Of a DNA stretch of 64,000 nucleotides, positions 24,811 through 58,958 are shown one piece after another. The stretch is from Escherichia coli (GTDB lineage Bacteria > Pseudomonadota > Gammaproteobacteria > Enterobacterales > Enterobacteriaceae): assembly GCF_003334315.1 (NCBI RefSeq), contig NZ_QOWR01000007.1. One strand, written 5' to 3'. Positions within the stretch are counted from its first letter, which is position 1. Every line of letters starts with the position of its first letter. Both the position numbers and the translations under genes were made by a program. The notes beneath the pieces were generated by a model, which was not told the DNA's origin, ran no database searches, and saw only the letters and a list, made by a program, of their open reading frames with translations.

Positions 24811-24922
24811 TGCCGGATGCGCTGAGCTTATCTGGTCTACGGTGCATGGCTTGTAGGGCGGATAAGATGCGCCAGCATCGCATCCGACAAAAGTGCCGGA
24901 TGCGGTTGATGATTTATAGGCC
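24811..24922. repeat. REP/BIME element cluster
   Basis: GCCGGATGCG... / CGCATCCG... palindromic units between ytfH and cpdB. Confidence 0.6.
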
Positions 24923-24936
24923 GAAAAAGAAGTGTT

Positions 24937-26909
24937 TTACTTACTCAAATCCACCTGATAAATCGCAAACCCGATATCATCGGTCGCGACTTTATTCATC
25001 GGATATTGCCCTTTCTCTTTAATAAACGCTGCGGCTTTATCTGACGGGGAAGTTTCGAAACGGATATCCAGTTTCTTATCGCCGGCTATCGGTGCTAAAC
25101 GCCAGTTGTTATCTGCCGCCGGGTGAATTTCCCCCGCACGTTTCGACTCATCAGCAATCCACGCTGCCAGCACCGAGCGGTTCTCATCCGGTGAAGCAAA
25201 AGCGATATGGCTGTCGCCCGTACCGGCAAATTTGCCGCCGTAAGCGCGATAGTTATTGGTGGCAACGAGGAACATGGCGTTCGGATCAATCGGCTTGCCG
25301 TTAAAGGTCAGGTTCTTAATCCTTTCCGCATTGGCATTAACCATCTGGCACTCGCCGTCATAACGGGCAGGCTGGGTAACATCAATCTGATAATTCACAC
25401 CATCAATCACATCAAAGTTATAGGTGCGGAAACCATCCCAGTTGATGAGTGACTGTGGTTTCGTGTTGTCAGGATCAATCTGGTTAAACTGTCCGGCGGA
25501 GCACTCCAGCCACTCTTTCACCTCTTTACCGCTGGCTTTCACCACAATCAGCGTATTGGGGTAGAGATAAAGATCGGCGGCATTACGGAAGGTCAACTGG
25601 CCTTTTTCCACCTCCACATAGCTTGCCGGATCATTTTTGCGACCACCAACTTTAAACGGTGCAGCAGCTGAAAGCACCGGCAGTTTTGCCAGATCCGGAT
25701 CGTCCTGAATGTAATGCTCGACATACGCTTTTTGCGCGTTGTTCACCACCTGCACGGTCGGATCGTCCTGCACCAGCGCCAGATAGCTATACATATTGTC
25801 GGCGGATTTACCGATTGGCTTGCTGACGAACTGGCGTGTGGCATCGTGATCGGCTTTGAGTGTTTCTACCAGCTTGCTGTCTTCCGCCGCGAGGGATTTT
25901 TTATTGGCGATGTCGTAAATCGGCCGTGCTTCCGCTTTCGCCTGCGTCACCTGCCATTTACCGCTGTTATTACTGAGTTGTAAGTCGACCACCCCAAGAT
26001 GATCGCCCCACATGCCCGGCATTACCGCCGGAACACCATTCAGCGTGCCTTTCGTGATATCAGCCCCTTCGATACGATATCAGCCCCTTCGATATCAGCA
26101 AAATCTTTACCTGGGAAAACGGCGTGAGCATGGCCAAACATAATGGCGTTAACGCCAGGAATTTCACTGAGGTAATAAACTGAGTTTTCCGCCATCACTT
26201 TATACGGATCGGCAGATAGCCCGGAATGCGCCAGAACGACAACGACATCGGCACCTTTCTCGCGCATTTCAGGCACGTATTTGCGCACGGTTTCGGTAAT
26301 ATCATTCACCGTCACTTTTCCGGATAAATTAGCTTTATCCCAGCCCATGATTTGCGGCGGCACGACGCCAATATAGTCAATCTTCAGCGTCTGTTTTTTT
26401 CCGTCTTTATCGACCACTTCGGTATCTTTAATTAAATACGGTGTAAACATTGGCTGTTTGGTTCTGGCGTCAATGACGTTGGCATTTACATAAGGGAATT
26501 TCGCTCCCGCCAACGCATTTTTCAGGTAATCCAGACCGTAGTTAAATTCATGATTGCCGAGTGTACCGACCGTATAATCCAGCGTATTCAGCGCCTTATA
26601 AACCGGATGAACATCACCTGCTTTTAATCCTTTCGCCGATATGTAATCGGCCAGCGGACTCCCCTGAATCAAATCGCCGTTATCGACCAGTACGCTGTTT
26701 TTCACTTCATTGCGGGCATCGTTAATCAGGCTTGCCGTACGTACCAGTCCGAATTTTTCCGTGGCGGTGTCTTTGTAATAATCGAAATCCATCATGTTGC
26801 TATGCAGATCAGTGGTTTCCATGATACGTAGATCGACCGTCGCTGCATTCACACTGGCGGCAATCAGCGTGGCCAGGAGCGTTGCGCTAAACTTAATCAT
26901 CAGGGACAT
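24937..26909 (-). pseudogene. cpdB: 2',3'-cyclic-nucleotide 2'-phosphodiesterase/3'-nucleotidase, frameshifted
   Basis: Two ORFs (26040-26909 with signal peptide [19 protein letters not shown] and calcineurin-like domain; 24937-26022 with 5'-nucleotidase C-domain) are adjacent and collinear with intact CpdB; frames are offset by a 20-bp insertion. Confidence 0.85.
26056..26093. repeat. 18-bp direct repeat pair (20-bp near-tandem duplication) inside cpdB
   Basis: GATATCAGCCCCTTCGAT at 26056-26073 and again at 26076-26093, separated by AC; removing 20 bp restores one frame ...[27 protein letters not shown]... Confidence 0.85.
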
Positions 26910-58811: not shown

Positions 58812-58868
58812 AGAATAAACTGGGCACGATAGCCCCGATTCAGATTGCAGACAAAGTAAGCTTTGTTC

Positions 58869-58958
58869 ATGCCGGATGCGGCGTAAATGCCTTATCCGGC
58901 CAACAAATTCAATAAATTGCAGGAATCACGTAGGCCTGATAAGCGTAGCGCATCAGGC
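58869..58958. repeat. REP element(s)
   Basis: TGCCGGATGCGGCGTAAATGCCTTATCCGGCC and GTAGGCCTGATAAGCGTAGCGCATCAGGC between mgtA and ridA. Confidence 0.5.

Follow-up and report, generated by a model that had tools for sequence, protein, structure and literature searches.

Repetitive extragenic palindromes (REPs) of Escherichia coli are a long-described family of types Y, Z1 and Z2 (Stern 1984; Gilson, Bachellier, Hofnung; reviewed in PMC3333891), the longest of which is Z2 (PMC2817692). They are combined in bacterial interspersed mosaic elements (BIMEs): BIME-1, also known as RIB or RIP, joins a Z1 and a Y REP through a long, conserved L linker that often carries a site for integration host factor (IHF) and is found in single copy, BIME-2 joins a Z2 and a Y REP through a short S linker and usually forms tandem arrays, and the remainder are atypical (PMC3333891). 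Here we analyse six such clusters, numbered C1 to C6 in order of position and their REPs a and b (c1a, c1b and so on), in a 64,000-nt stretch of E. coli DNA (the window; RefSeq assembly GCF_003334315.1, contig NZ_QOWR01000007.1). The six intervals are genuine E. coli REP/BIME sequences at fixed positions in the core genome. Family identity, hairpin potential, extragenic location, high copy number, orthologous conservation and the use of one of the sites by the insertion sequence IS621 are all directly supported, and we assign a probability of roughly 0.93 to the reading that they are BIMEs, built from inverted pairs of Y, Z1 and Z2 REPs, with the roles that published work on the family would give them. 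In length, hairpin mismatches, stem-foot tetranucleotide, extragenic position and multicopy nature they resemble the described REPs, and nothing of substance differs: c1a and c1b are degenerate, c6a has GTTG in place of GTAG, and the only departures from the family are routine decay and variation between strains. The finding is right but unremarkable, since these are textbook repeats at K-12 positions that already form part of the K-12 REP inventory, and it has little importance beyond correct annotation.

The identification starts from motifs that can be recognised by eye, each interval showing the REP head GCC(G/T)GATGCG and the tail CTTATC(C/A)GGCCTAC; by convention, the strand of a REP is given here in the direction from head (GCC.GATGCG) to tail (CTAC). 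The tail motif CTTATCMGGCCTAC, with up to two mismatches allowed, matched 12 times, twice in each interval and nowhere else in the window, against 0.42 matches expected from shuffled sequences, which bears out an initial annotation that had placed REPs at these six intervals. The head motif GCCKGATGCG had 13 exact matches, 12 of them within the clusters. Each cluster thus contains two full REPs in inverted orientation, 12 in total, together with a few REP fragments. The 12 REPs are 29-37 nt long, and each folds as the expected imperfect hairpin, with energies of -10 to -22 kcal/mol. When the 12 were aligned, 95.7% of stem cells were paired, compared with 31-42% when the pairing partners were slid, and the alignment contains compensatory G-C/U-A exchanges at the position that distinguishes Y from Z, which supports the REP stem structure. 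The tetranucleotide CTAC/GTAG stands at the foot of the stem in 11 of the 12 REPs, c6a (CAAC) being the exception.

A covariance model built from the window's 12 REPs (R1) was used to scan the whole window with filters off. The 12 REPs scored 37-56 bits and three opposite-strand matches to the same palindromes 16-17 bits; no further full REP was found in the 64 kb, the best other match reaching 12.5 bits. Since R1 is circular for the REPs from which it was built, we added tests that are independent of the window. The published Y and Z2 consensus, derived from REPs flanking the K-12 transposase gene (PMC2817692), was applied in an edit-distance (Sellers) scan and recovered 12/12 REPs at edit distances of 2-10 out of 35-37, so that all six intervals score as REP in a consensus search; the scan yielded one chance-level extra match, and shuffled sequences gave 0-3. 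Two of the REPs, c5b and c6b, are identical to two of three "known REP sequences" in PMC11208160, and R1 in turn detects six REPs around K-12 rayT, the gene of the RayT transposase, at 46-48 bits. The Rfam family naRNA4 (RF02564), which is derived from REP325 and has a gathering threshold of 59.5 bits, was matched above that threshold at C4 (80.1 bits, 45779-45856) and C3 (67.3 bits, 39538-39616) and below it at C5 (41 bits), C6 (34), C2 (32) and C1 (28); in a permissive scan of positions 24000-59500, every match with E<=1 fell within the six clusters. As for copy number, a blastn-mode search with the C4 unit gave at least 37 matching places for each of 5,426 complete E. coli genomes; megablast of a BIME unit undercounts them (median 2 places), because it requires a 28-nt exact word.

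Over positions 24001-48990, the window and the E. coli SY3626 chromosome (NZ_CP059283.1) are 100% identical, and this stretch was matched in 5,426/5,426 of the complete genomes searched. In the RefSeq annotation of SY3626, all 12 REPs are extragenic and lie in six intergenic spacers; the K-12 RefSeq table, for its part, returned no repeat_region rows. The initial annotation had the clusters mostly between convergent genes or inside operons, and this is true for five of the six. Three are convergent, namely C1 between ytfH (+) and cpdB (-), C4 between mpl (+) and yjgA (-) and C6 between mgtA (+) and ridA (-), and two are operon-internal, C3 in ytfQ/ytfR and C5 in nrdD/nrdG. C2 is the exception, set in the tandem pair msrA (-) and paeA (-), past the msrA stop and 177 nt ahead of the paeA start.

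C2 and C6 are both BIME-1 elements, each a single tail-to-tail pair of a Z1 and a Y REP with a conserved long linker and conserved flanks, as in the described form. C2 consists of a 29-nt Z1 REP (c2a, 30491-30519, + strand, 38.4 bits with R1), a 35-nt L linker (30520-30554) that carries AATTCAATATATTG, and a 34-nt Y REP (30555-30588, - strand, 49.3 bits, edit distance 5 to the published Y), whose head is adjoined by a BIME-1 flank motif, ATAAATAAAGCGCACTTTATCAACAATCT (30589-30617). In C6 the order is reversed: a flank motif (58842-58870), which aligns with those of C2 and of a BIME-1 from strain FORC_028, adjoins the head of a Y REP (c6a, 58871-58904, + strand, 49.7 bits), followed by an L linker (58905-58929) that carries AATTCAATAAATTG and by a Z1 REP (c6b, 58930-58958, - strand, 44.7 bits) that is the published short REP of PMC11208160 letter for letter. 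The C6 linker, at 25 nt, is 10 nt shorter than that of C2. In alignment, the linkers and 29-nt flanks of C2 and C6 show homology with one another and with those of the unrelated FORC_028 BIME-1, and a motif search found AATTCAATnnATTG in both linkers. The tetranucleotide of c6a is mutated to GTTG both in this strain and in K-12.

C3 and C4 are single BIME-2-type units, in which a Y REP is joined head-to-head to a Z2 REP across 14 or 13 nt, as in REP325 and naRNA4; they differ from BIME-2 and REP325 arrays in being single units. C3 begins with a REP head fragment (GCCTGATGCC..., 39520-39534, + strand, one mismatch to the head motif) 10 nt past the ytfQ stop, continues with a Y REP (39535-39568, - strand, 55.6 bits, edit distance 4 to the published Y) and a 14-nt linker (39569-39582) that falls within the naRNA4 match, and closes with a 37-nt Z2 REP (39583-39619, + strand, 46.4 bits, edit distance 4 to the published Z2) that ends 29 nt ahead of the ytfR start codon. 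C4 has a Y REP (45776-45809, - strand, 52.6 bits, edit distance 2 to the published Y), a 13-nt linker (45810-45822), likewise within the naRNA4 match, and a Z2 REP (c4b, 45823-45859, + strand, 50.4 bits), and is followed by an isolated, exact head fragment GCCGGATGCG (45868-45877, - strand).

The remaining two clusters are less regular. C5 is an atypical or BIME-2-type half element, a tail-to-tail Z2/Y pair with decayed remnants: the Z2 REP (48904-48939, + strand, 47.7 bits, edit distance 4 to the published Z2) and the Y REP (c5b, 48955-48988, - strand, 55.5 bits) are separated by a 15-nt linker (48940-48954), and c5b, which matches the published Y query TGCCGGATGCGGCGTAAACGCCTTATCCGGCCTAC of PMC11208160 exactly, lies 23 nt downstream of the nrdD stop. 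Degenerate REP remnants, recognised by eye and given no R1 score, occupy 48860-48897 directly upstream of the nrdG start, and the region has a weak naRNA4 match (48873-48936, 31.6 bits). C1 is a degenerate, atypical BIME. Its first REP (24812-24840, + strand) has the 29-nt length of a Z1 REP, is degenerate (37.0 bits, hairpin -10.4 kcal/mol) and begins 2 nt past the ytfH stop codon (TAA, 24807-24809); the second (24853-24888, - strand, 46.6 bits) is a hybrid of 36 nt in which a Z2-type loop sits on a Y-like stem, at edit distance 7 from the published Z2 consensus and 9 from Y. The two are arranged tail-to-tail across a 12-nt linker and are followed by a head fragment (24895-24922, + strand) in which an exact GCCGGATGCG runs into a degenerate tail, and which is not a full REP by R1. 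The pieces at 24895, 39520, 45868 and 48860 have no covariance-model score and are counted as fragments only. In the R1 scan, C3, C4 and C5 each consist of one Y/Z2 pair plus fragments, so the tandem copies typical of BIME-2 are missing from all three.

The nrdG ribosome-binding region (CCAGGCGAAACAATG, - strand) lies inside the decayed REP-like sequence beside C5, at 48854-48897, and part of a former REP may now act as the nrdG translation start region.

The intervals proposed in the initial annotation were essentially right, and the ends of the second and fourth and the start of the sixth need correction. The second stops 8 nt before the end of its Y REP (30588, not 30580), and the composite BIME-1, with its flank motif, extends to about 30617; the fourth cuts through the head fragment that ends at 45877; and the sixth leaves out the conserved 29-nt flank motif at 58842-58870 and should start at 58842.

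All 12 REPs are found in K-12 too, at the same six sites, which there lie at 4,434,496-4,434,572, 4,441,393-4,441,490, 4,450,944-4,451,028, 4,457,185-4,457,268, 4,460,415-4,460,498 and 4,470,381-4,470,468. Compared with the window, the spacers of K-12 and of strain SCU-116 show scattered substitutions and only one or two short indels, and nearly all the REPs persist in three strains that are more distant (97-98% identity). Among the changes seen, the Y unit of C2 is below threshold in SCU-116, and in AVS0750 a G-rich palindromic repeat of another kind (CCCCTCGCCCCTTTGGGGAGAGGGTTAGGGTGAGGGGG), possibly boxC-like, stands in place of the Z2 REP of C3 and lengthens the ytfQ-ytfR spacer (26463-26674 of the AVS0750 locus, L006) from 139 to 212 nt. 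In FORC_028 (48785-49864 of that strain's locus, L007), IS621 splits the Z1 unit of C6. Its junctions read ...cacGTAG, then IS621, then AGGCCTGATAAGCG, with the core dinucleotide on both sides, and these sequences indicate that IS621 inserted at the core dinucleotide of ATCAGGCCTAC. This is the natural 11-nt target of IS621, a bridge-RNA element (PMC11208160).

The same IS621-in-C6 arrangement is annotated in strain GE3. A junction query made of 126 nt of mgtA flank and BIME and 95 nt of IS621 end, counted where at least 80% of it was covered, was found in 1,226/5,426 complete genomes (about 23%). Target sites of IS621 in REPs were reportedly noted by Choi in 2003. The window itself holds three exact targets, in c2a (30509-30519), c4b (45849-45859) and c6b, and in contrast to FORC_028 and GE3, where c6b is occupied, all three are empty; annotating the REPs therefore also flags three ready-made IS621 target sites.

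FORC_028 additionally has an extra BIME-1 downstream of cycA (6463-6560 of L007), beside a cycA-ytfE insertion of about 2 kb that the window lacks. A BIME does, in that strain, adjoin strain-specific DNA.

An intrinsic-terminator search found no match in any of the six REP spacers. Strong terminators are present at the REP-less convergent junctions ytfK|paeA (28931-28955), ytfP|ppa (37344-37363) and yjfF|fbp (43172-43195), the first two being two-way. BIME transcripts fold better than shuffled sequences in 8/9 folds, with z-scores of -2.0 to -4.8. REP hairpins are described as resistant to PNPase and RNase II and as the markers of stable 3' ends, in many cases where Rho has terminated transcription further downstream (PMC6061677), and this kind of protection fits the lack of intrinsic terminators in the six spacers. 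By this route, REP hairpins in a transcript would stop 3'-to-5' exonucleases, fixing and stabilising the upstream message at its 3' end, and at the convergent junctions they would serve as 3'-end protectors where an intrinsic terminator is missing. Annotating the REPs thus offers an explanation for several gene ends that have no such terminator. At the operon-internal clusters C3 and C5, the same effect would favour ytfQ over ytfRT-yjfF and nrdD over nrdG, the classic pattern of a binding protein or a catalytic subunit. C3 lies between the periplasmic binding-protein gene ytfQ, which it directly follows, and the ATPase/permease genes, as do the REP stabilisers of the ABC operons at malE-malF and hisJ-hisQ (Newbury 1987, as cited in PMC6061677), and a stabiliser effect in ytfQRT-yjfF is suggested by analogy with those two operons.

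Other roles, and the origin of the repeats, can likewise be proposed from published work on the family. The clusters are probably non-autonomous descendants of sequences mobilised by the tyrosine transposase RayT (TnpA-REP), which cleaves and recombines BIMEs in vitro (PMC3333891). At the DNA level, BIME-1 linkers bind IHF (PMC3333891), and the long linkers of C2 and C6 are likely, as predicted sites, to do the same; gyrase cleaves BIME-2 mainly in the y REP (PMC6379681), and the Y REPs of the Y/Z2 units in C3-C5 are possible gyrase sites. At the level of translation, ribosomes stall and synthesis falls where a REP lies 15 nt or less from a stop codon (Liang 2015, cited in PMC12306157). Only the ytfH REP of C1 is this close; it may reduce the synthesis of YtfH by holding up ribosomes at termination, and may throttle YtfH through stalling and trans-translation. 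The BIME-1 of C6, a population-level hotspot for IS621, is the other candidate for an individual effect, where insertion may alter 3'-end processing of mgtA and ridA. That single clusters have such locus-specific regulatory roles, with C1 and C6 as the candidates, seems to us doubtful. The exonuclease, IHF, gyrase and translation effects would in each case carry over from work on other members of the family, and a search of the literature that combined these genes with REP returned nothing relevant.

Several observations weigh against the main reading, with the roles and the origin that it proposes. The linker motif shared by C2 and C6 is one mismatch from the IHF consensus, WATCAANNNNTTR, and is a predicted site only. 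Each of C3-C5 has a single Y/Z2 pair, and as BIME-2 elements are described as tandem arrays, strong gyrase binding there is doubtful; the gyrase-map supplements (PMC6379681) also have no entry for the genes of these loci. The + strand transcript of C3 does not fold significantly better than shuffled sequences (z = -1.3). c6a is without the GTAG tetranucleotide that RayT needs, and rayT, present in 3,575/5,426 complete genomes, is absent from about 34% of them. Finally, conservation at orthologous sites could reflect a low rate of loss and not selection.

In the strongest alternative, the clusters are true REP/BIME elements and functionally neutral at these loci: selfish sequences, or fossils left over from RayT-driven spread, which persist only because they are rarely lost precisely and which bring no gain to their neighbours. 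We regard this as a real possibility, if clearly the less likely one. In its favour are the decayed copies (the degenerate C1, the fragments at 24895, 39520, 45868 and 48860, and the mutated GTAG of c6a), the exchange of the C3 Z2 REP for a different repeat in AVS0750, where the operon shows no annotated damage, the interruption of C6 by IS621 in about 23% of genomes, and the absence of rayT from about 34% of genomes. Against it stand the retention of both REPs at all six sites in K-12 and most of the strains compared, at 2-3% divergence, the distribution of intrinsic terminators, which are missing from REP spacers and present at the REP-less convergent junctions, and the published protection of mRNA 3' ends by REPs (PMC6061677).

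A second alternative, which we consider improbable, takes the units as independent small-RNA (sRNA) genes that act in trans, for instance with HU in nucleoid condensation: naRNA4- or CssrE-like in C3 and C4, and CssrF/ES036 in C2. The Rfam matches are what speaks for it, RF02564 being above gathering at C3 and C4 and ES036/CssrF (RF02751) reaching its gathering score on the C2 linker (30512-30554, - strand), along with a published account in which HU is bound, and DNA condensed, by a Y-linker-Z2 RNA of REP325 and in which the majority of REPs are transcribed (PMC4550694). These Rfam families are themselves REP-derived, however, and as naRNA4 is such a family, a match shows only that a Y/Z2 unit is present, not a separate gene. 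Moreover, no promoter-like site was found in or beside C2, C3 or C4, the units lie in the 3' regions of mRNAs, with which they would be co-transcribed, and REP325 is an array of six units as opposed to the single units here. Marking the REPs as such avoids mistaking the naRNA4 and CssrF matches for novel sRNA genes. The idea that these are unique terminator hairpins or members of another repeat family (ERIC/IRU, boxC or a MITE) that look like REPs by chance, prompted by GC-rich hairpins at gene ends like those of terminators, is refuted by the exact or near matches to published REPs, the CTAC/GTAG tetranucleotide in 11/12 copies, the 37 or more matching places per genome, the detection of rayT-flanking REPs by R1, and the absence of any U-tract terminator match in the spacers.

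The window also contains an accessory segment, which by BLAST against K-12 spans 10080-18003, where K-12 has 1.08 kb with yjfZ. It carries genes for an MFS transporter, an FAD oxidoreductase, a CoA-transferase, an enoyl-CoA hydratase, a sugar-phosphate isomerase, a ketoacyl reductase and a TetR regulator. Its left junction lies directly past the rplI terminator hairpin, and its right junction is inside the TetR-family gene (17759-18406). That no REP flanks this island, as the initial annotation had noted, is confirmed: on the right, over 6 kb separate its edge at 18003 from the closest REP, and there is none on the left. The further step, taking this absence as an argument against REP-mediated insertion, is weak, since it assumes that an insertion took place here. 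The right junction falls inside the TetR gene, and the 3' remnant of that gene is what K-12 retains as the pseudogene ytfA. Judged from the sequences, the K-12 state looks derived, through a later replacement or deletion, and the absence of REPs therefore says little about insertion either way. The analysis removes REPs as an explanation for where the segment lies. The segment is also present in two of the more distant strains, SCU-116 and AVS0750.

The window as a whole is part of the E. coli chromosome from bsmA to tabA, at about 95-96 min of the K-12 map and in the orientation of the K-12 + strand. In the gene map, taken from the RefSeq annotations of SY3626 and K-12 MG1655, the order is bsmA, the ula operon, rpsF-rplI, the accessory segment, and ytfB through mgtA and pyrBI to tabA. 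The window differs from K-12 in several genes. cpdB (region 24937-26900, - strand), an unbroken gene in K-12 and in the other strains examined, is here split into two open reading frames (24937-26022 and 26040-26909) and is annotated by RefSeq as frameshifted in the identical strain SY3626. ytfI is absent compared with K-12 (27820-27830), with the result that cysQ and ytfJ overlap; the chpS-chpB toxin-antitoxin pair found in K-12 is missing between ytfP and ppa (37334-37712); and cybC (47958-48344), a pseudogene in K-12, is intact in the window. Rfam families that also reach their gathering score in the window are the RpsF leader (8505-8589), the ES239 sRNA in the region upstream of cysQ (26901-27023), STnc450 in the 5' leader of paeA, adjoining C2 (30375-30432), and the Mg2+ riboswitch in the mgtA leader (55906-56021).

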